In this document: in pieces, positions 52,162-64,000 of the stretch | How positions within the stretch are numbered: the stretch's first letter is position 1 | How the letters are laid out: the number at the start of each line of letters is the position of its first letter | Origin: Synergistales bacterium | Lineage (GTDB): Bacteria > Synergistota > Synergistia > Synergistales > JAFGMB01 | Length of the DNA: 64,000 nt | Assembly: GCA_963666205.1 (NCBI GenBank) | Contig: OY762654.1 | Location: forward strand, 1,216,001 to 1,280,000 | Direction: 5' to 3' | Translations under genes and position numbers: made by a program | Notes under the pieces: model-generated | What the model saw: the letters and a program-made list of their open reading frames with translations, nothing else | Told to the model about the DNA's origin: nothing | Database searches by the model: none

Positions 52162-52773
52162 TCAGATACGGGGGTTCTCCCGTTCAAAACAGGTAATGCA
52201 GAGAACCCGTCCACCGGAAAGCCTTGCCTTTGTCTCCATAACCATTTCTCCACAATCTTCACAGGAAACACTTTTTTTCATGGGAGCATATTCAGGAACT
52301 GGGAACTGGACTTCCTTCACCTCGAACAGGTCTACCAGGTCAGCCCCCAGTATCATGCCGGAATGTTCATCCCGAAGTTCCAGAAACCGGGTCCAGTCAT
52401 CTTCAGAGAGGGAACCTTCGTTACTTTTCTTCTGCAGTTCCCTATACTCCTCCCGTCCTTTATCGTCACCAGGGCGAAGGACTATCCTTTTAGACTTTCC
52501 ATCCCTCCGACGGTAGAAACTGAAAGCGACCTTTCCCAATGTCCTGACCACAAGATTACCCTTTCCCAGGGTACATCCTGTGAGGAACTGGATGGCATCC
52601 ACTCCGCAGAAGTCCGTCTCTGCAACTGTAACGATATCTTCATCCAGGCTGTGGCCAAATTCCTGCAGGGCAAATTCTGACGCCCTGATACCGATCGCCA
52701 GCCCCGGACACCAGTGGCCGTGAAAATCTATACATTTATGTATAAGCTCTTCGGTAATTATTTGTTTGGACAT
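52162..52773 (-). CDS. FmdE family protein with C-terminal zinc finger
   Basis: FHGHWCPGLAIG, CGVDAIQFLTGCTLGKGN, CEDCGE..CITC. Confidence 0.92.
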   Translation of the reverse strand: MSKQIITEELIHKCIDFHGHWCPGLAIGIRASEFALQEFGHSLDEDIVTVAETDFCGVDAIQFLTGCTLGKGNLVVRTLGKVAFSFYRRRDGKSKRIVLRPGDDKGREEYRELQKKSNEGSLSEDDWTRFLELRDEHSGMILGADLVDLFEVKEVQFPVPEYAPMKKSVSCEDCGEMVMETKARLSGGRVLCITCFERENPRI

Positions 52774-55933: not shown

Positions 55934-56039
55934 GATAGATCCGATTTTCAAGCCCTTACTATCTCTAATACAAAAAAAGAGGACACCCCTCTCCAGGGCT
56001 GTCCTCAAAAGTTTCCTCATCTGTACTATTTATGTAATA

Positions 56040-56441
56040 CTACTCTCTGGGTTGTACCGGGTAACCCGCCTGGATCCAGGCTTTCCAGCCTCCCTTGAGA
56101 ACCTGAATATTTTCGAAACCTGCATCGATCATTTTTCGCGCCACACTGGCGCTTGTGAATTCGAAGGGTCAGGCACAATAGATAACGTATCTCTTGTCCT
56201 TGGGATAATCTGGAATCCATTCTTCCGTCTTCCAGGGATCTCCTCTGAAAGAACCCTCGATCATCTCATCACTCTTTTTCCAGTCACTGGTCTTCCTTGA
56301 ATCAATTACCACAAGATCTTCTGTTCCCAAAACACTGTTGAGTTCATCTACAGTGATCTTTGGAACAGCTTCTGCGATCATGGGAATGAACAGAAATAGC
56401 GACAACAATAGAACCAGGAACAGGGGTTTTCTAATTTTCAT
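56040..56441 (-). CDS. Exported rhodanese-domain selenoprotein 1 (TGA at 56169-56171 read as Sec)
   Basis: YCA-TGA-PFEFTSASVARKMIDAGFENIQVLKGGWKAWIQAGYPVQPRE*: the rhodanese domain is complete only with readthrough. Confidence 0.88.
56138..56152 (-). promoter_or_regulatory. SECIS-like hairpin 1
   Basis: GCGCCA-GUG-UGGCGC starting 16 nt after the UGA. Confidence 0.7.
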
Positions 56442-56621
56442 AAACAAAATATCACCTCCTTTCATATATTTTCACATTTTAACATAATACGTGTTTAAAT
56501 ACATATCTATATTCTCCCCGGGTTATTTATCCGGATCTACAGAAATAAGGAATTCCAATTTAAAATTTAACAAGTCCTGACTCAACTTTTGGACCTGATC
56601 ATGACTATTGAACTGCAAAGG

Positions 56622-56652
56622 AAAAGACAGCCCACTCTTCAGGCTGTCTTTT
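56622..56652. terminator. Intrinsic terminator after rhodanese 2
   Basis: aaaagacagcc/ggctgtctttt; a related hairpin at 55972-56006 follows rhodanese 1. Confidence 0.75.
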
Positions 56653-56686
56653 AAAGGATCTTCACATTACGCATTTTATAGAATGA

Positions 56687-57097
56687 TCATTCTCTTGGCT
56701 GTACCGGATAACCCGCCCTGATCCAGGCTTTCCAGCCTCCCTCAAGGGCCTGTACATTCTCATACCCCCCCTGGATCATTGTCTGCGCCACCCTGGCGCT
56801 GGTGAATTCAGAGGGTCAGGCGCAATAAAGAACAAATTTCTTATCCCTGGGGTATTTTTTCATCCACTCTACCGTCTTCTCCGGATCCTCCCTGACGGCA
56901 CCCTGGATCATTTTATCGCTCTCTTCCCAGTCGCTTTGTTTCCGGACATCGATAATAACAAGATTCTCTTCTCCCCAGATACTGTAGAGTTCATCTACTT
57001 TTATCTTTGGCACTGCTGCTTCAGAAATTACAGGTATCATAAAAAACACCATAAACACAAGAAAAAGGAGGAGAGGTTTTCCAGCTTTTTGAAACAT
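56687..57097 (-). CDS. Exported rhodanese-domain selenoprotein 2 (TGA at 56816-56818 read as Sec)
   Basis: YCA-TGA-PSEFTSARVAQTMIQGGYENVQALEGGWKAWIRAGYPVQPRE*; GGAGGT RBS, signal peptide. Confidence 0.88.
56785..56799 (-). promoter_or_regulatory. SECIS-like hairpin 2
   Basis: GCGCCA-GGG-UGGCGC starting 16 nt after the UGA. Confidence 0.7.
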
Positions 57098-57314
57098 AGG
57101 ATCACCTCCATACCAGTATGCTTGTATTTTATCATACATAACTACCATATCATTGTTGCACACTTGTAAACCGAGCTTCAGAAATACCTGGACCATGATA
57201 GAAGTATAGCTATCTGTCATAAAACAAGAAAAGAGCGGACTCTTTATCAAGCCCGCTCAAATTAATAGACGGTATTTCACTTCAATATATTTCTCTCAAC
57301 TTATCATTGACACT

Positions 57315-58700
57315 TTATTCGGGTATTTCAGAATAATTTTCTCTTATTCCTTCATTTCCCACTTTATTTTCACCGTTCCACCATCCGGGAAGAAGCCTTG
57401 CAATTACTATTGTACCCAGGGCAAGGGCTGTAAAGAACATCCCGACATGCAAGATACCGTATTTCATCATCAGGAGAGGCATGAATGCAAAGATAAACCA
57501 TATGTAAAGAGAGGTAATGGCAAAGGCCATTGACCATGAACTGAGAGCCTCAGTCTTGAAATCCGGATCGACAAGTCGAAGCAGTAGAATACCTGTAGCA
57601 CCCACTCCGGTACATTGACCAAAGTTAATAATACTTCTTTCAAACCAGTCCTGGCGTGGTAGCATTCTCTTCCCAAAATACATGGTAATGAAAATAGTCA
57701 TTGCCAGACCCACACTACAAAGGACGGTTATGGGTATGATATAACCCATAACTGCTTTAACCGGCAGAGAAATGATCGCTGAAACGACGAGAAAATCGAC
57801 AAACATACCCATCAGTCTGGCCTTGACTACAGGATCTATCAGCCAGTCTAACCCCACCTTACACATGCCAAACCATATAAGGGCCATAAGGATGATCCCC
57901 CATGCCCATGGAGCCACTCGATGGATTATGCTGCCTGCGAATAATTCCCTGACCTGAAAAGCGGCACCTACCGTGATAAGGATAACTGCAAGCATGAAGG
58001 AGTATGGTTCAATCGCAGCAGGATACTGGATCTGTTTCCCTAGGTATTTTGCATTTTCCGGACGGCTATAGCCCTTGATGATCTCTTCCGGAAGATCATC
58101 CGGACTGGATAGAAAATTGGTATAGCCCTTTCGAGCCGCATAATTTATCATCACGATTCCCGCCAGGATCCCTCCCAGAATACCTACAGTAGCGGTAGTC
58201 AAACCGACACCCTGGCTGTCAAGCCACCAGTCAACCCCCATTTCTTTAAGGGATGATCCCAGCATAGCAGCTGTTCCATGCCCTCCGGCAAATCCGGCCC
58301 AGAGCTCGAAACCAAAAGTTTTATAGGTTACCTTAAGAAAGGCGGCTCCTGTTAGCAACCCTACCCCGATCTGGGCAAGAAAGTGGAGATTAAGGTGAAG
58401 GAATTGCCGCCCAACTCCCCCGGCAAGTTCTTTTGGTTTTGGGAGCTTGATTCCAAGAACTGATGCGGTGATAACAACCGTAATGAGAACCCCTGGAAGT
58501 TTTGAAAATTCTTTCATCCATTCTTCACTTACCGGTATTACTCCCAACACGTTAGGACACAGTATCAAACCTATTACTCCGCCGATAAGGCTTGCAGGAA
58601 GAAACAGTTTTCTAAGAGGTTTTACCCAGACCCTTACGACGTATCCAAGCAACAGAAAAACACTCAACAAAATGAACTGTTTGAGAATCGTTTCAGACAT
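57315..58700 (-). CDS. gltS: Sodium/glutamate symporter (GltS/ESS family)
   Basis: LPASLIGG, GFAGGHGTAA, FGQCTGV.ATG.LLLR.VDP. Confidence 0.85.
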   Translation of the reverse strand: MSETILKQFILLSVFLLLGYVVRVWVKPLRKLFLPASLIGGVIGLILCPNVLGVIPVSEEWMKEFSKLPGVLITVVITASVLGIKLPKPKELAGGVGRQFLHLNLHFLAQIGVGLLTGAAFLKVTYKTFGFELWAGFAGGHGTAAMLGSSLKEMGVDWWLDSQGVGLTTATVGILGGILAGIVMINYAARKGYTNFLSSPDDLPEEIIKGYSRPENAKYLGKQIQYPAAIEPYSFMLAVILITVGAAFQVRELFAGSIIHRVAPWAWGIILMALIWFGMCKVGLDWLIDPVVKARLMGMFVDFLVVSAIISLPVKAVMGYIIPITVLCSVGLAMTIFITMYFGKRMLPRQDWFERSIINFGQCTGVGATGILLLRLVDPDFKTEALSSWSMAFAITSLYIWFIFAFMPLLMMKYGILHVGMFFTALALGTIVIARLLPGWWNGENKVGNEGIRENYSEIPE

Positions 58701-58820
58701 ATTTTCCCCCCCTATTATCTTCTGAGATTACGGATCACATAAATCTGCCTTTATACATAAACTCCCCCAAAGAATATTTCACGGGGGAAGCCTTCCCCTG
58801 GAAAAATGATTTATTAAGGA

Positions 58821-60008
58821 CTAACCGGAAACAGATTTCCAATCTGCACTTTTTATCGCAAGATATGTCTGCCATGCAGTTCCCCATGCAAGAATACTTT
58901 CATCGAAGATCATGGCCGGATGATGGACCCCATTTTCACCATTTACCCCAAGCATAATGAAACATGATGGTATCTCCCTGGAAAAGAAAGAAAAATCTTC
59001 TGAACCCATAAAGGGATTTTCCTTTTCGATGACTTCCTCCCAGAATTCCGGTCCCATTTCAAGAACTTTCTGGGTCAGGAATGGATGATTAATAACAGAT
59101 CTGTAGTTGCACTTATATTCGAAAGAGGTATCAAGCCCGTATGAATCTGCAGTTCCATGACATATCTCTTCGAGTCTCCTCTGGATAAGTCTCTGCACTG
59201 GGTCGGTAAAAGTTCTTACAGATCCTGAAAGAGAAGCAGATCCAGGAATAATATTCTCCCCGGAACCTGCATGGACCTGTCCTATTGAGACTACCGCCTC
59301 TTCGAAGGGGTCGATATTCCTGCTTACCAGGGTGTTAATGGCTCCTATCATCTGGCCAAGGGCTGGTATGGGATCTTTAACCAGGTGAGGTATGGATGCA
59401 TGTCCTCCCTTACCCTGGATCTCAATATAGAAACGGTCGCTATTCGCAGTGAAGGCATTTTTTCTTGTAGTGATGCTCTTGTGAGGCAGAAGGACCGGCA
59501 TTAGATGATGTCCGAAAATACAATCCATGGGATATTTTTCAAGGAGACCCTCATCGATCATCTTCTTTGCCCCCGCAAAACCTTCCTCAGCCGGCTGAAA
59601 AACAAGGATGACTTCTCCCTTTAAATCCTTTTTACGCTCAGCGATCAGTTCGGCGACCCCCAGCAGCATGGCCACATGTCCATCATGACAGCAGGCATGC
59701 ATAACCCCTCCAGAAACGGAAGAATAGGGTAAACCTGTTTCCTCTTTCATGGGCAGGGCATCCATATCCGCCCTCATCCCTCTTGCAGGCCCAGGTTTAT
59801 CGCCTTTAATTCTTCCGACAACACCAGTAACACCAATACCAGTAGAAACTTCATAACCCAGAAGATCGAGGACTTCTGCCACTATTGATGAAGTCCTGAT
59901 TTCCTCAAAAGCCAGCTCAGGGTGTTTATGGAAGTCTCTCCTCCACGAAATGATCTTATCCTCTATGGATAAAGCGCTTTGCAGAAAAGATCGAGCCTCT
60001 GTATTCAT
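58821..60008 (-). CDS. M20D amidohydrolase
   Basis: HPELAFEE, RADMDALP, MHACCHD, FQPAEE, GSEDF; start could be the GTG at 60017. Confidence 0.92.
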   Translation of the reverse strand: MNTEARSFLQSALSIEDKIISWRRDFHKHPELAFEEIRTSSIVAEVLDLLGYEVSTGIGVTGVVGRIKGDKPGPARGMRADMDALPMKEETGLPYSSVSGGVMHACCHDGHVAMLLGVAELIAERKKDLKGEVILVFQPAEEGFAGAKKMIDEGLLEKYPMDCIFGHHLMPVLLPHKSITTRKNAFTANSDRFYIEIQGKGGHASIPHLVKDPIPALGQMIGAINTLVSRNIDPFEEAVVSIGQVHAGSGENIIPGSASLSGSVRTFTDPVQRLIQRRLEEICHGTADSYGLDTSFEYKCNYRSVINHPFLTQKVLEMGPEFWEEVIEKENPFMGSEDFSFFSREIPSCFIMLGVNGENGVHHPAMIFDESILAWGTAWQTYLAIKSADWKSVSG

Positions 60009-60024
60009 TACCTTCACCTTTTTT

Positions 60025-61356
60025 TCAGTTGCTCATAAGATTTGGCAGGAATAGGGATATCTGCGGAAATAAAATAAGTATCCCAAGAACAACGAGTTCG
60101 CAGAAAATAAAAGGCCATACCCCCCTGAACACCTCTTCCAGAGAAGTATCCTTACCTGCCACACCTTTCAGGGCATAGACGTTCAGACCAACCGGCGGAG
60201 TGATTGCTGCTATCTCACCAAGTTTCATAATGATCACACCGAACCAGATAGGATCATAACCAAGAGATACGATGATCGGGAAAAAGATGGGCAGGGTAAG
60301 GGCCATGATGCCGGTAGGAATAACTATCATCCCAAGAAGGAACCAGATCAAAAGGATTCCTGAAAGCACAGCAAACCTGGGCATATCCCATCCTGTTATC
60401 AGGTTTGAAGCAAAAGAGGGAATTCTTGTAAGGGCAAGAAATCTGCCAAAGAACAGTGCTCCCACCATAATAATGAATATCATGGAAGTAGTATGGGCCG
60501 AATCCCTCATACCCTTCCTGATAGCCTGAATGGATCGGATCTTCCCCTGTTGAAACCCCAGGACCAGCGCGGAAAGGGCTCCTACTGCTCCGGCTTCGGT
60601 AGGAGTGAAGATACCTGAATAGATGCCACCCAGCACTATGGCTGCTATCAATCCAATTGACCACATCTTCCGTAACGAACCCAGTTTGCCTTTCTCCACT
60701 TTTCCGATTCTTTCACTTTCAGCAGAATCCCGAGGGGCAAGAGAGGGATTTCTAAGCACCCTTAGAATTATCATCACCGAAAAGGCGGCAGCTGTAAGGA
60801 TACCTGGAAGAATCCCTGCCATGAATAATTTTCCTATAGACTGTTCTGTAAAAATTGCATAGACAATAAAACCGGCACTTGGAGGGATCATTGCGGCAAA
60901 ACCGCCTGCAGCAGCGATACTTCCCAAAGCGAAAGGTTTATCGTACTTATAACGGGTCATCTCCGGCAGTACTATTTTCCCGAATAATGCTGCGGTTGCC
61001 AGGGATGAACCCGATACTGCCCCAAAAGCGGCACAACCGAAACAGGTGGCTATGGCCAAAGATCCAGGCAAGCCTTCGGTCAGATCATGTATACCTTCAT
61101 AAGCCTGCTGTGCAAAAGAACCCATGGCCGCAAAAGCTCCCATCAGGATGAAAAGAGGAAGGGCACAGAAGGTTGGCGTCGCAATGGTATAGTACATTGT
61201 CTGACTGAGAAAGCTCATAGCTCCCTGAAATCCCACCAGAACCGCGATCCCCAGAAATCCAACAACAAAGAAGTCAATAGCAATATGGATCCCCTTACCA
61301 AGCAATATCAACAACAGAAGGATACCTATCAGACCAACAGTTACAGGATCCATCAT
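60025..61356 (-). CDS. dctM: TRAP transporter large permease
   Basis: ALPLFILMG, SGSSLA, IPPS, FTPTEA, ITPPVG. Confidence 0.93.
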   Translation of the reverse strand: MMDPVTVGLIGILLLLILLGKGIHIAIDFFVVGFLGIAVLVGFQGAMSFLSQTMYYTIATPTFCALPLFILMGAFAAMGSFAQQAYEGIHDLTEGLPGSLAIATCFGCAAFGAVSGSSLATAALFGKIVLPEMTRYKYDKPFALGSIAAAGGFAAMIPPSAGFIVYAIFTEQSIGKLFMAGILPGILTAAAFSVMIILRVLRNPSLAPRDSAESERIGKVEKGKLGSLRKMWSIGLIAAIVLGGIYSGIFTPTEAGAVGALSALVLGFQQGKIRSIQAIRKGMRDSAHTTSMIFIIMVGALFFGRFLALTRIPSFASNLITGWDMPRFAVLSGILLIWFLLGMIVIPTGIMALTLPIFFPIIVSLGYDPIWFGVIIMKLGEIAAITPPVGLNVYALKGVAGKDTSLEEVFRGVWPFIFCELVVLGILILFPQISLFLPNLMSN

Positions 61357-61868
61357 TTGCCATCTCCCCCCATCGCCGGTTTTGACCAGATATCAGAGAT
61401 CATTGACACTGCATTGATCACAAGTTGGAACAGGTAGAAGATACAGCCGATAAAAATAATGAATTTCACCGGGTAGACAGGAAGAGGAGTGGTCCCTGAT
61501 ATGGCTTCCCCAGTATCAAATGAAAAGATGGCATTAACATATGAAGCGTAGGAAGCAATGATCATGAAAAGAATGGCGATCCCATAATCGAAAAGATCGG
61601 ATATTTTTCTGGAACCAGGAGACAGCTTTTCAATAAAGAATTCCACTCTTATATGGCTTCGATTCTCCTCACAATGGGATAATCCCAGGTAAACCGTTGC
61701 TACAAGAGCAAATACAGCCATTTCACTTACCCCTTGGACAGGTTTTGAGAAGAACCTTGAAACAATATCGAATAAAAGTAAAGCCATTATGGCAGTAACC
61801 AGCCATCCACTAAGCTCGGCCAGAGCGTTATTCAGTCTATGAAGCAAATCAGAAATCGAGTTGAGCAT
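61353..61868 (-). CDS. dctQ: TRAP transporter small permease
   Basis: 4 TM, HIRVE motif, between dctP and dctM. Confidence 0.9.
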   Translation of the reverse strand: MLNSISDLLHRLNNALAELSGWLVTAIMALLLFDIVSRFFSKPVQGVSEMAVFALVATVYLGLSHCEENRSHIRVEFFIEKLSPGSRKISDLFDYGIAILFMIIASYASYVNAIFSFDTGEAISGTTPLPVYPVKFIIFIGCIFYLFQLVINAVSMISDIWSKPAMGGDGK

Positions 61869-61933
61869 GGTTGCCTCCTTTTGAACCCGAAGAAAGGGCA
61901 GGTCTGTTTATGACCTGCCCCTGGATCCAAAGA

Positions 61934-63019
61934 TCATTTTTTCTCTTTTCCTATTTCTTCAGAAATATATTTCTCCATTGTTCCGAGTATTTCACGTCCG
62001 TTGGCAATGCCCATTTCTTCAGCTTCAATGATCCAGCTTTCTTTCAGATCATGCCATACACCAAGTTCAACCCATTTTCGGATATCTTCTTTCGAAGCCT
62101 CTGTAACGGTACATCCCCTGTCTTTCTGTGACAGAGCTATTCTTTCCCACTCAAGTGTATAAAGATCAGAGAATCTTTCGATAACTGACGTATTTGCTCT
62201 CAGAATTCCCTGCTGGATATCTGCCGGAAGACTGTTCCATTTCTTCAGATTAATGGTCACAAAAATAGGCATGGGAACCCATAATTCTCTGGCAGTAAAA
62301 ATATGCCTGGCGGGTTCATCAAGTTTAGTGGCATAAATACCGTCATAGTTTGTAAACACCCCGTCTATCGTCCCGGTTTGAAGGGCCATGTAGCAGTCAC
62401 TCCAGGGGACCGAAACCGGAGTAGCACCGCAAGCCTTCAACGCTTTGAGATAATTTGCGCTTGAAGCACGGACTCTCAGGCTGGAAAAATCTTCAACCTT
62501 TGTAAAGGGGCTGGTTGAACAGAGTGCCATGGGGAGCATGAATCTCATGAACAGAACCTTCTGATTCCACTTCTCCAACTCTTTGCTGAAATCGGGTATG
62601 GAATCGTAACAGTTTGTTATGGCTCTGCTCAGATTAGAGAACTTCGTAGGTCCCTCAGGAAAAAGGGCAAAAGCATTATGCATGAAAAGCTGTTTGGGGT
62701 AATAGGCAGGGAGTACATATCCCATATCCACCATTCCGTTTTTTACACCATTCAGGATTTCCTTACCCTTCAACAGAGAACCCTGCCAATATATTTCAAG
62801 GGTCACCCGGCCATCGGTATTTTTTTCAATTTCTTCTTTCATTATCTGTACAAAATTACCGCCCAGTCCGGCAGGAGGACCAGATTCCGCATATGTAAGA
62901 GTAATAACCTTTTCTGCAGAAGCAGAACTCACCGTCAATGGAAAGACAGAAATGAGGATCGTAAAGATAATGAATCCAGAAAAAAGAAGAACACTCTTTT
63001 TAGATCTTTCACTAAACAT
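61934..63019 (-). CDS. dctP: TRAP substrate-binding protein
   Basis: Signal peptide; LRVR, YMALQTGTIDG, WNSLPADIQ. Confidence 0.9.
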   Translation of the reverse strand: MFSERSKKSVLLFSGFIIFTILISVFPLTVSSASAEKVITLTYAESGPPAGLGGNFVQIMKEEIEKNTDGRVTLEIYWQGSLLKGKEILNGVKNGMVDMGYVLPAYYPKQLFMHNAFALFPEGPTKFSNLSRAITNCYDSIPDFSKELEKWNQKVLFMRFMLPMALCSTSPFTKVEDFSSLRVRASSANYLKALKACGATPVSVPWSDCYMALQTGTIDGVFTNYDGIYATKLDEPARHIFTARELWVPMPIFVTINLKKWNSLPADIQQGILRANTSVIERFSDLYTLEWERIALSQKDRGCTVTEASKEDIRKWVELGVWHDLKESWIIEAEEMGIANGREILGTMEKYISEEIGKEKK

Positions 63020-63065
63020 GTTTCATCCCCCTTTACTGATTTTTTAGACTGTCTTGATTTTACAT

Positions 63066-63998
63066 TCAGAAAAGTTCAAGGTATTTCCTCTGCAGGGAAA
63101 CTCCAAGACCAGGTTTTTCCCCGACGATCACCTCACCATTGTCAACTTCAAGTGGTGGTTCAAGAAGATCTTCCTCATAGAGTGGGACTGCAATCTGGTC
63201 ATTGTCATGACACATACAGACCTGACTGGCCGCGAAATGGACATTAGCCATCGACCCAAGACCTGCTTCAATATTGCTCCCGGCAACAGCAGTCAGACCT
63301 GCTGCTTCTGCTATGGCTGCAGTCTGTACTGCCCTGTAAAGTCCTCCAACCTTGGCTACTTTTATATTTAGGATATCGGCAGCTTCCATATCCACGATCC
63401 TTATGGCATCATGAATGCTGGAACAGCTTTCATCTGCCATAACGGGAACATCTATCTTATCCCGCACATATTTCAGACCTTTAAGGTCCCATCTCCTGAC
63501 AGGCTGTTCAACATATTCAAGACCAAGATCACTTATATCCTCATAGAAGGCGAGAGCCTCACATGCCGTAAAAGCCTGGTTTGCGTCAATCCTGAGTTTG
63601 AATTCATATCCAAATTCTTCCCGCAGCTTGTGAAGAAGTATCTTTTCCCTTTCTGTATCAGTCCCAACTTTAACTTTCAGAGTTCCATAACCATTCTCGA
63701 ACATGGCTCTGGCATCTGCCAGTCCATCTTCGATAGTCTGTATTCCGAGTACCCATGCCTGGCGAACAGAGTTTCTGACTTTCCCTCCTAAAAGTGAACA
63801 TACAGGAACCTGAAGTAATTTACCTGCAGCATCGTAAATGGCCAGATCCAGAGCTGTCTTTGCACCGTGACATTCAGCTGCTGTCCTGTCCATTCTCCGG
63901 TGGATATCAGATACATCAAGAACACTTATACCCTTAAGCTGGTGTTTGAGGTTCTTCTCGATAACCTCCTGGTCCGTGTACGCTGTTTCTCCCATGAA
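63066..63998 (-). CDS. Enolase-superfamily (MLE subgroup) enzyme, probable dipeptide epimerase; 5' end outside window
   Basis: KVK, DANQ/EQP/DES metal ligands, NIK second Lys base, C-terminal DND (DxD) motif. Confidence 0.8.
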   Translation of the reverse strand, partial: FMGETAYTDQEVIEKNLKHQLKGISVLDVSDIHRRMDRTAAECHGAKTALDLAIYDAAGKLLQVPVCSLLGGKVRNSVRQAWVLGIQTIEDGLADARAMFENGYGTLKVKVGTDTEREKILLHKLREEFGYEFKLRIDANQAFTACEALAFYEDISDLGLEYVEQPVRRWDLKGLKYVRDKIDVPVMADESCSSIHDAIRIVDMEAADILNIKVAKVGGLYRAVQTAAIAEAAGLTAVAGSNIEAGLGSMANVHFAASQVCMCHDNDQIAVPLYEEDLLEPPLEVDNGEVIVGEKPGLGVSLQRKYLELF

Positions 63999-64000
63999 AG

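Follow-up and report, generated by a model that had tools for sequence, protein, structure and literature searches.

A tandem gene pair in a Synergistales bacterium very probably encodes exported CxU rhodanese selenoproteins of an already catalogued family

On the minus strand of a Synergistales genome, two paralogous genes carry an in-frame TGA directly after the residues YCA, followed by 42 further conserved codons. Do these TGA codons end two short proteins, or are they read as selenocysteine (Sec, U), and what would the resulting proteins do? We examined the pair within the 64,000-nucleotide stretch of DNA that holds it, hereafter the window. With translation table 11, the ORFs at 56169..56465 and 56816..57250 (minus strand) are ended by YCA-TGA. 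Reading TGA as U extends copy A by 42 residues, PFEFTSASVARKMIDAGFENIQVLKGGWKAWIQAGYPVQPRE, up to the TAG at 56042-56040, and copy B by 42 residues up to the TGA at 56689-56687; AWIQAGYPVQPR is an example of a peptide predicted downstream of the TGA. The features of the pair are:

57103..57109, minus strand: ribosome-binding site of copy B, GGAGGTG, 7 nt from GGAGG to the ATG, read from the sequence.
56687..57097, minus strand: CDS of copy B, the upstream paralog, a predicted rhodanese selenoprotein precursor of 136 residues (ATG 57097-57095, stop TGA 56689-56687; NF041203, 161.5 bits; PF00581, residues 34-127).
57017..57097, minus strand: predicted signal peptide of copy B, 27 residues, cleaved between VISEA and AVPK (sequence reading, hydropathy script and a low-pLDDT N-terminal helix, residues 6-19, in the model).
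56816..56818, minus strand: in-frame TGA of copy B, predicted Sec94 in the motif LYC-A-U (TGA in 80 of 82 copies at the homolog column; unchanged in RNA-library contigs).
56785..56799, minus strand: putative SECIS-type hairpin of copy B, GCGCCA-GGG-UGGCGC, stem start 16 nt past the UGA (conservation and covariation).
56622..56652, minus strand: hairpin after copy B, a 12-bp stem followed by CCUUUGC, a probable terminator between both genes (-20 kcal/mol, z -2.07).
56453..56459, minus strand: ribosome-binding site of copy A, GGAGGTG, read from the sequence.
56447-56445, minus strand: alternative start of copy A, an in-frame TTG.
56040..56441, minus strand: CDS of copy A, the downstream paralog, a predicted rhodanese selenoprotein precursor of 133 residues (ATG 56441-56439, stop TAG 56042-56040; NF041203, 149.3 bits; PF00581).
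56367..56441, minus strand: predicted signal peptide of copy A, 25 residues, cleaved between MIAEA and VPK (sequence reading, hydropathy script).
56169..56171, minus strand: in-frame TGA of copy A, predicted Sec in the motif IYC-A-U (homolog column; unchanged in RNA-library contigs).
56138..56152, minus strand: putative SECIS-type hairpin of copy A, GCGCCA-GUG-UGGCGC, stem start 16 nt past the UGA (conservation and covariation).
55972..56006, minus strand: intrinsic terminator downstream of copy A, GAGGACA...UGUCCUC and then U7 (-26.8 kcal/mol, z -4.21, a fold matched by 0 of 200 shuffles; consensus scan).

The two copies are identical at 85 of 135 positions (63%, pairwise alignment), and their post-TGA segments at 31 of 42 (hand count on the paralog alignment). 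The rhodanese domain PF00581 crosses the TGA in both (residues 31-125 in copy A, 34-127 in copy B), and the predicted mature proteins would have about 109-111 residues if full-length and 66-68 if stopped at the TGA. The first-pass annotation, made from the sequence alone, had described ORFs stopping at YCA-TGA and 42 open, conserved codons that complete the fold; the frames, the paralog alignment and PF00581 agree with this description. RNA-library contigs from four runs in two studies span both TGAs with no difference listed there, which shows the TGA to be present in independent data, Sec insertion being a separate matter. None of the contigs from the four runs lies over 56432-56686 or the flanks, where uncovered stretches prove nothing, and those of three runs in two studies end at 56015/56016; contig depth cannot rank genes and carries no inference on operon structure or expression level.

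The family to which both copies belong is already known, since NCBI has a curated model made specifically for it, NF041203 (rhodanese_LYCAU, “rhodanese-related (seleno)protein”), and reviews list the family as a CxU rhodanese selenoprotein (“form 3 / COG0607 form 2, CxU”), a predicted protein traced to a 2005 prediction. The model scores 149.3 bits for copy A and 161.5 for copy B against a curated cut-off of 115, covering profile positions 4/5-125 of 126 in both; against genomic DNA it gives 141.8 and 154 bits, with one TGA in each match. The L-Y-C-A-U motif appears as VLYCAU in copy B and VIYCAU in copy A. The pair is thus a correct, ordinary find within a catalogued selenoprotein family, and the earlier suggestion of a hidden, novel gene falls away. 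The C-A-U motif, size and Sec column of NF041203 are those of both copies, and nothing essential differs: both are members, with an unusual host phylum and a tandem duplication. From the Olavius symbiont metagenome (PMC1976440), a UxU form of rhodanese-related sulfurtransferase selenoprotein is described, which belongs to the same family but has Sec in place of the Cys of CxU, whereas the window pair is CxU. Judged by these sequence features, the pair very probably represents tandem paralogs encoding exported single-domain rhodaneses of family NF041203, and we hold our best explanation, taken as a whole, with high confidence.

Does the genome have the means to decode these codons? Profile searches of the one-contig genome recovered selA (564.7 bits) adjacent to selB (364 bits), selD (333.7 bits, with one TGA of its own) and tRNA-Sec (77.1 bits), all over their cut-offs, and ARAGORN reports a tRNA-SeC with anticodon tca; every component of the machinery that the first pass had proposed to look for was found. 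A hairpin GYGCC-NGNNU-GGCRC with a stem of 5-6 bp, conserved across 76 distinct homologous sequences, begins 16 nt past the TGA, inside the codons for T-S-A-x-V-A. At pair 27-39, 55 of these sequences have U-A, 16 have C-G and 5 have U-G, none being unpaired, and both columns are third codon positions, placing the U-A/C-G covariation at synonymous sites. Pairs 28-38, 29-37 and 30-36 are formed in 76, 76 and 75 of the 76 sequences, and the loop G32 is invariant. Overall, 78% of the alignment cells are paired, vs 23-46% with the partners slid by 1-3 columns. Because the homologous sequences are related and not independent, shuffle controls of the covariation overstate its significance. Single-sequence fold z-scores of the post-UGA region are unremarkable for the two genes (-1.28 and -1.42; -0.37 and -0.33 over longer spans), and support for the hairpin comes from conservation and covariation, not from single-sequence folding. 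In the bSECIS model, the UGA is soon followed by a stem-loop whose apical loop holds a G, features that recur here in the position of the stem and its invariant loop G. The prediction that the in-frame UGA is read as Sec via SelB and tRNA-Sec, directed by the post-UGA hairpin, is strongly supported, and the downstream hairpin invoked in the first pass is seen as a conserved, covarying, SECIS-type stem.

The best 80 loci among the genomes of 368 relatives, each locus from another species, hold 82 copies of the gene: 75 with C-x-TGA, 5 with TGA-x-TGA and 2 with C-x-Cys. The TGA and the open downstream frame therefore recur in 80 of the 82 copies, far beyond chance, and the comparison of homologs suggested earlier yields predicted Sec, rarely Cys, at the TGA column. 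Two database relatives (P0005 and P0006) read YCAC, with Cys at this column, and loci L082 and L089, which form a derived clade, have TGT there and lack the canonical stem. Tandem copies also occur about 430 bases apart in a Geobacteraceae MAG (L044), and the source genome holds a third, more distant paralog outside the window, of the UxU type. Within Synergistota, 3 of 201 genomes carry the gene, forming one clade among deltaproteobacterial sequences; the family is rare in this phylum, which is an unusual host. Of 11 database relatives, 8 were cut by generic gene callers at the TGA or shortly ahead of it, to products of 92-97 residues. The claim that standard annotation would truncate such genes holds for these callers, but a pipeline using NF041203 should recognize the gene. 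The Cys-x-Sec motif, the tandem duplication and the Synergistota host had all been named correctly.

The AF2 model has a mean pLDDT of 89.8, with domain blocks above 90, and Foldseek returned 141 PDB matches at E <= 0.001, the matches listed being rhodanese-type domains. The Francisella rhodanese-like protein 6mxv, E. coli GlpE (1gmx), Anabaena Alr3790 and Thermoplasma TVG0868615 share the alpha/beta fold of the window pair (target-normalised TM of 0.81 for 1gmx and 0.85 for 3gk5, rmsd of about 2 A). HMMER alignment to 6mxv sets the Sec column on the loop Cys of each of its two domains (C-G-G-G-F-R-S and C-G-S-G-F-R-S) and runs ungapped from there through GGW, with a six-residue active-site loop; in one of four PDB alignments, that of 2hhg, C92 and not U94 falls on the chain's Cys by way of a two-residue gap. 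Sec most likely occupies the canonical position of the catalytic Cys, where the rhodanese active-site loop begins. Solved single-domain rhodaneses have a catalytic Cys there, whereas the window pair would have Sec, preceded two residues earlier by an additional Cys. A 51-row alignment of members shows no variation at C92 or in the Sec column; elsewhere, 5 loci have TGA in place of the Cys two residues upstream of Sec, and we infer that this Cys probably acts as a second redox-active residue.

The loop itself reads U-P-[S/F/N]-E-x-T in the same alignment, with a nearly invariant Glu and no Arg or Lys; it is acidic where the loops of solved rhodaneses are Gly/Arg-rich, and predicted export is a further difference from these. 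Loops of thiosulfate:acceptor sulfurtransferases of the GlpE/PspE type are basic or Gly-rich and suit an anionic sulfur donor. The pair shares with that type a nucleophile at loop position 1 (Sec, not Cys, with the 2hhg alignment ambiguous on this point), but no basic or Gly-rich stretch is present in its loop sequence, which argues against thiosulfate as the donor. Both N-termini resemble Sec-type signal peptides, as called by eye and with a hydropathy script: MKIRK, a hydrophobic stretch and a cut between AEA and V in copy A, and MFQKAGK, a hydrophobic stretch and a cut between SEA and A in copy B. This matches the cleavable signal peptides described previously. The same script finds an N-terminal hydrophobic stretch in 82 of 84 family copies and a lipobox-like motif in 17, and the CxU rhodanese family is predicted to be almost always exported.

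We also asked what surrounds these genes. In the window, Peripla_BP_2, FecCD, ABC_tran and FmdE genes adjoin the pair on the same strand, and the upstream gene encodes a GltS-like membrane protein of 461 residues. For comparison, ORFs within 4 kb were clustered at 75 loci and representatives scanned in Pfam and NCBIfam. The cluster is also found at an Acetomicrobium hydrogeniformans MAG locus (L031) and is kept within the genus only: a single-copy relative from another genus of the same taxonomic family (L029) has different neighbors, and the cluster did not recur among the 75 other loci. The metal-uptake/FmdE operon reported in the first pass does lie next to the pair, but a functional link to it is unsupported given this distribution. 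DndB-like, cyclophilin, HNH, lipid A acyltransferase and DUF547 neighbors were rejected as functional partners; they come mostly from one MAG group (75-98% identity), and recurrence among closely related MAGs reflects synteny, not a functional link. The sole diverse recurrent neighbor, with a median identity of 32%, is a membrane protein of about 420 residues that lies directly upstream on the same strand at 16 of 75 loci; three members were scanned, and one showed faint amino-acid-permease matches. BLASTP found no homology between this protein and the 461-residue GltS-like one or the 357-residue membrane protein upstream at L031 and L029 (E 4.1 and 0.17). Across the family, the gene neighborhood is not conserved and offers no functional clue. 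A consensus promoter scan gave a candidate at 57153..57126 upstream of copy B and none for copy A, and a consensus terminator scan listed the hairpin after A and not that after B. Hairpins follow both genes (z -4.2 for A, -2.1 for B), consistent with the terminators attributed to each.

Among better-known systems, Sud of Wolinella succinogenes (1qxn) is likewise a small sulfur carrier with the rhodanese fold (16% identity, rank 47 in the Foldseek search). Sud is a periplasmic polysulfide-sulfur transferase that uses Cys and serves the polysulfide reductase Psr, a membrane PsrABC complex with an NrfD-type PsrC. Such a partner would be expected in a Sud system, whereas PF03916 (NrfD/PsrC-type) has no match in the source genome (one genome, 100% complete). 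TsoB (NF045694), resembling a rhodanese/DsbD fusion, also combines a rhodanese domain with Sec and an envelope thiol-redox association, but the match to it is weak and partial (30.1 bits vs a cut-off of 805). TsoB is a fusion of 572 positions with a UxxxxU motif.

Could the TGAs nevertheless be real stops, leaving truncated relics or products of 91-93 residues without the active-site loop and a merely residual frame behind them? We consider this hardly credible. Table 11 and the generic gene callers do stop there, and TGA does serve as a stop in the source genome, where it ends copy B and where the selA and selB matches are free of internal stops. A residual frame would, however, have to account for 42 codons over which the paralogs agree better than elsewhere in the protein and which complete the Pfam domain, for a frame kept open, with TGA at that column, in 82 copies from 80 species, for a covarying hairpin at a fixed distance, and for the existence of Cys forms alongside a complete Sec machinery. 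A functional tie to the adjacent Peripla_BP_2 / FecCD / ABC_tran / FmdE cluster is improbable as well. It draws on same-strand adjacency in the window and at L031, and is opposed by the strong terminator between copy A and the binding-protein gene, by the different neighbors at L029 and by the absence of the cluster from the 75 other loci.

What, then, might the proteins do? Beyond the observed gene structure, family membership, Sec-decoding signals, fold and export signal, we tentatively favor extracytoplasmic transfer or reduction of sulfane sulfur via a Cys-Sec selenenylsulfide, well short of an even chance. After export by the Sec pathway, the selenolate would take sulfane sulfur from a donor of the persulfide, polysulfide or thiosulfate type and form Se-S-. 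The neighboring Cys would then attack and release or pass on the sulfur, leaving a Cys-S-Se-Sec selenenylsulfide, which an extracytoplasmic thiol system fed by a CcdA/DsbD-type membrane protein could re-reduce; a DsbD_TM/CcdA-type gene is present in the source genome (54.7 bits). Somewhat less probable is that genuine Sec-rhodaneses act as thiol/selenol oxidoreductases on disulfides, sulfenic acids or peroxides in the envelope, with the C-x-U pair cycling between selenol/thiol and selenenylsulfide and carrying no sulfane sulfur. As in redox motifs, Sec can stand at either end of the pair at once, 5 of 82 copies being UxU; reviews note a likeness to thiol oxidoreductases in most predicted prokaryotic selenoproteins; and the acidic loop without basic residues and the CcdA/DsbD-type gene fit. 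Yet the fold and the Sec position are those of sulfur-carrying rhodaneses, and the neighboring genes, in the window and at the 75 loci, include none for a thioredoxin-like partner. We regard as doubtful a role in handling a metal or a chalcogen or metalloid oxyanion (selenite, tellurite, chromate or arsenic species) outside the membrane, for uptake or detoxification with a membrane transporter. A weak match to ChrE, a rhodanese of chromate resistance (E 1.6e-10, far short of the ChrE cut-off), points that way, as do the permease-like protein upstream at 16 of 75 loci and the GltS-like one in the window. Against it, BLASTP shows no relationship among the three types of membrane protein encoded upstream, the permease-like neighbor is missing at 59 of 75 loci, each rhodanese gene in the source genome has its own terminator hairpin, and the loop lacks the Arg of CX5R, the motif of arsenate-reductase/phosphatase sites.

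As a discovery the pair carries little weight, given the curated NCBI model and the selenoproteome reviews; its practical value is to recall that a generic gene caller tends to end such genes at the TGA or ahead of it. Added here are the position of Sec, the near-universal predicted export, the rarity and single clade in Synergistota, and the non-conserved neighborhood. A literature search on Anaerobaculum, thiosulfate and rhodanese found nothing, and for NF041203 itself the relevant literature found was a 2026 review. According to the A. hydrogeniformans genome note, Acetomicrobium/Anaerobaculum lack cytochromes, and PMC3944610 describes Acetomicrobium, one of the hosts, as sulfidogenic oil-field bacteria implicated in pipeline corrosion. 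It is a long shot that the Sec-rhodanese pair, perhaps with the UxU paralog, is part of the machinery by which these bacteria reduce thiosulfate and elemental sulfur to sulfide, in which it would act, on the same slender odds, as a selenium-based extracytoplasmic sulfane-sulfur acceptor or reductase. For Acetomicrobium thiosulfate and sulfur reduction, the pair is a cheap, testable candidate, and its biological interest lies in a widespread, almost always exported rhodanese with predicted Sec at the catalytic site.

Under translation table 11, both open reading frames of the rhodanese pair stop at Y-C-A-TGA (56169..56465 and 56816..57250). Reading this TGA as selenocysteine (Sec, U) yields two genes arranged head to tail, in the following context:

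The rhodanese pair and its neighbors
56040-56441, minus strand: copy A, MKIRK...VIYCAU plus 42 residues, then TAG
56687-57097, minus strand: copy B, MFQKAGK...VLYCAU plus 42 residues, then TGA
Downstream of the pair: Peripla_BP_2, FecCD, ABC_tran and FmdE-zf-dskA genes
Upstream of the pair: GltS-like membrane protein (E 9.3e-6, below the Pfam cut-off), M20 peptidase, TRAP transporter and enolase-superfamily gene

The first-pass annotation had described a conserved 42-codon frame beyond each TGA, and this was confirmed. The copies are identical at 85 of 135 positions in a pairwise alignment and, by our own count on the alignment, at 31 of the 42 post-TGA residues, so the stretch beyond the “stop” is no less constrained than the one before it. 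A GGAGGTG ribosome-binding site can be read ahead of each copy. The proposal that each gene has its own terminator also held, with a strong intrinsic terminator and its U7 tract 3' of copy A (-26.8 kcal/mol, z -4.2) and a 12-bp hairpin, whose U tract is weak, 3' of copy B (z -2.1), the latter absent from the list of a consensus scan.

Several lines of evidence converge on selenocysteine as the meaning of the in-frame TGA. The host genome, searched as one contig of 2.95 Mb, encodes the full machinery that the first pass had proposed to search for: selA (564.7 bits) and selB (364 bits), adjoining each other; selD (333.7 bits; G000:C1:2905894-2906826, minus strand, locus L010); and tRNA-Sec (Rfam, 77.1 bits; called tRNA-SeC with anticodon tca by ARAGORN). 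Since selD contains one in-frame TGA of its own, the selenophosphate synthetase SelD is probably a selenoprotein too. A homolog scan with one genome per species returned 368 relatives; from these, the best 80 loci, comprising 82 gene copies, were kept. Among these copies, 75 carry Cys-x-TGA (CxU), five carry TGA-x-TGA (UxU; L048, L056, L085, L087 and L109) and two carry Cys-x-Cys (CxC; L082 and L089), and all 82 retain the downstream frame through GGW...YP. Eight of 11 protein-database relatives are shortened, ending at YCA (n = 5), YCK (n = 1) or FY (n = 2; P0011 and P0013, consistent with termination at the first of a UxU form's two TGAs), and two are full-length Cys forms (YCAC). The remaining relative, P0007, has W at the Sec column (YCAW), which may be a gene caller's reading of TGA as Trp.

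In two studies, four RNA libraries contain contigs that span the TGA of both genes (95-100% identity), with no difference from the window listed at either TGA. These contigs bear on the presence of the TGA and say nothing about translation; being independent, they rule out an assembly error. The contigs matching 56015-56431 and 56687-57107 come from marine-sediment metatranscriptome libraries of the two studies, and in three runs they stop at 56015/56016, immediately 5' of the terminator stem, with adapter sequence there in one.

The expected downstream hairpin is present in both copies as a GCGCCA-NNN-UGGCGC fold starting 16 nt after the UGA, and the same hairpin was found across the family. 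A gap-free alignment was made of 76 distinct stretches of 60 nt, with identical rows removed, from the CxU forms of the window, L028-L029 and L032-L110; the five UxU and two CxC genes were left out. Pair 27-39, with both columns at synonymous third codon positions (AGY Ser, GCN Ala), is U-A in 55 sequences, C-G in 16 and U-G in five, and is never unpaired; its C-G state is spread over several distinct clades of the tree. The three inner G-C/C-G pairs are formed in 75-76 of the 76 sequences, pair 26-40 is flipped to C-G in two, and the loop G at column 32 is invariant. Paired cells amounted to 78%, compared with 23-46% when partners were slid by 1-3 columns, and the covariation score was 0.161 against a shuffled mean of 0.102, with none of 500 shuffles reaching it, although both controls overstate significance because the sequences are related. 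In the two Cys-form genes (L082 and L089), the stem was looked for and is missing.

Both copies exceed the cut-off of 115 bits of the NCBIfam equivalog model NF041203.1, “rhodanese_LYCAU, rhodanese-related (seleno)protein” (149.3 bits for A, 161.5 for B). Of the reviews that list the family, one traces it to Zhang and Gladyshev 2005 (Bioinformatics 21:2580; reference 13 of that review), and another counts it among predicted selenoproteins, describing the functions of most of these as not clear. The UxU variant was already described in the Olavius symbiont paper (PMC1976440); both window copies, in contrast, are CxU. Thus, the Cys-x-Sec rhodanese interpretation is supported, and the two copies are ordinary members of an already known family.

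Modeled with AlphaFold2 from a family alignment of 51 rows, the protein has a mean pLDDT of 89.8, with domain blocks above 90 and a less certain N-terminus (about 30 residues, pLDDT 62-75), where a helix at 6-19 fits a signal peptide. The Foldseek matches listed are single-domain rhodaneses (6mxv, 2hhg, 3gk5, Alr3790, GlpE 1gmx and, at rank 47, Sud 1qxn). HMMER alignment to both domains of 6mxv runs ungapped through the GGW motif and places the loop Cys, the catalytic residue of rhodaneses, opposite the Sec column. Sec is therefore likely, rather than proven, to occupy the catalytic-Cys position, as the 2hhg alignment instead pairs C92 via an opened gap. D50, C92, U94, S100, L118, G120, G121, W122, W125 and P131 are invariant in the 51 rows, and E97 and T99 nearly so; the loop, U-P-x-E-x-T, is acidic and contains neither Arg nor Lys. 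In the UxU forms C92 is itself replaced by Sec, which speaks for an active role as redox partner rather than for a bystander.

Export, also proposed at first pass, is predicted from N-terminal hydropathy: a hydrophobic stretch (11-residue Kyte-Doolittle mean of at least 2.0) occurs in 82 of 84 copies, namely the 82 from the best 80 of 368 relatives plus the window's two, both of which have it. The exceptions are L056 and L051, the latter with an interrupted upstream frame; 17 of the 84 have a lipobox-like motif. As neither “periplasm” nor “signal peptide” is present in a 2026 review of the field, this near-universal predicted export may be under-remarked.

Within Synergistota, the family was found in three of 201 sampled genomes, host included, all in the host's own taxonomic family and with one TGA per match. 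Most of the 80 other-species loci, the best of 368, belong to Thermodesulfobacteriota or “delta proteobacterium” MAGs; some are from Nitrospirota and Methylomirabilota. A maximum-likelihood tree of 51 rows groups the four Acetomicrobiaceae sequences in one starred clade (99/94) beside L056 and L078, among deltaproteobacterial sequences. The clade splits into copy B with an Acetomicrobium hydrogeniformans MAG (L031) and copy A with the gene of a single-copy relative in another genus (L029). In the same tree, the CxC pair forms a derived clade. Given this placement and distribution, the simplest reading of the sequences is that the gene was acquired horizontally once and then duplicated in tandem at an early date, on a tree whose root is midpoint only and does not show direction. 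Two copies, with some 430 bases between them, also occur in a Geobacteraceae MAG (L044).

Outside the window, the genome carries a third rhodanese selenoprotein gene that is more distantly related (G000:C1:2315597-2316025, plus strand; L026:1261-1689 / L112). It has two in-frame TGAs in the motif FY-U-A-U-PEE, an N-terminal hydrophobic anchor or signal, and a GCAGUC-CGUGU-GGCUGC hairpin after the second UGA; at 51.5 bits against the cut-off of 115, the curated model would not name it. Thirteen of the 201 Synergistota genomes, from four families, have relatives of it, each with 1-2 TGAs. Eight of the 11 relatives translated, those outside Acetomicrobiaceae, are CxU proteins of about 100 residues that lack a signal peptide; covariation is seen in their stems.

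The metal-uptake/FmdE neighbors noted at first pass are indeed downstream and recur in L031, but not in L029 or among 75 other loci. In the last gene of this cluster (52162-52773, minus strand), an FmdE domain is fused to a C4 zinc finger of the DksA/TraR type. L031 and L029 share a 357-residue membrane protein (72% identical) upstream on the same strand, directly adjacent in L029 and separated in L031 by one 139-residue ORF of no family. Its host homolog (81% identity; G000:C1:1281663-1282724) is found roughly 8.6 kb farther upstream, just beyond the window, so a transport/peptidase gene block has been inserted in between; in the window (57315-64000), this block holds the GltS-like membrane protein, M20 peptidase, TRAP DctPQM and enolase-superfamily gene. 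At 16 of the 75 loci, in diverse lineages, a multi-pass membrane protein of about 420-450 residues lies directly upstream on the same strand (for example, L105:2641-3897, L069:2619-3905 and L045:2558-3910; median pairwise identity 32%). It matched no Pfam or NCBIfam family, one of three members scanned gave faint amino-acid-permease matches, and with the rhodanese it may form a real gene pair. No function-explaining neighborhood was found in the window, L029, L031 or the 75 other loci.

The proteins combine a rhodanese fold and an export signal with Sec, very probably at the catalytic position, and a redox-capable Cys or Sec two residues earlier. Tentatively, Sec would take up sulfane sulfur as Se-S-, C92 would resolve this to a selenenylsulfide, with the sulfur released or passed on, and an envelope thiol system would re-reduce the C92-Sec pair; a DsbD_TM/CcdA-type gene is present in the genome. 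An arrangement of the Sud-Psr type is unlikely here, as no NrfD/PsrC match was found in the genome. A role purely as a thiol/selenol oxidoreductase, in which the same pair would serve, seems rather less probable than the sulfane-sulfur scheme, and chalcogen, metalloid or metal handling together with a transporter is improbable.

According to PMC6025917 and PMC3944610, Acetomicrobium/Anaerobaculum reduce thiosulfate, sulfur and cystine or cysteine to sulfide, and the A. hydrogeniformans genome note states that cytochromes are lacking and that “the pathways are unknown”. A part in this pathway for the exported Sec-rhodaneses is a long shot: 198 of the 201 sampled Synergistota genomes lack the family, and the acidic loop is ill-suited to thiosulfate. 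At this low probability, they are nonetheless cheap candidates for sulfur/thiosulfate reduction in Acetomicrobium/Anaerobaculum.
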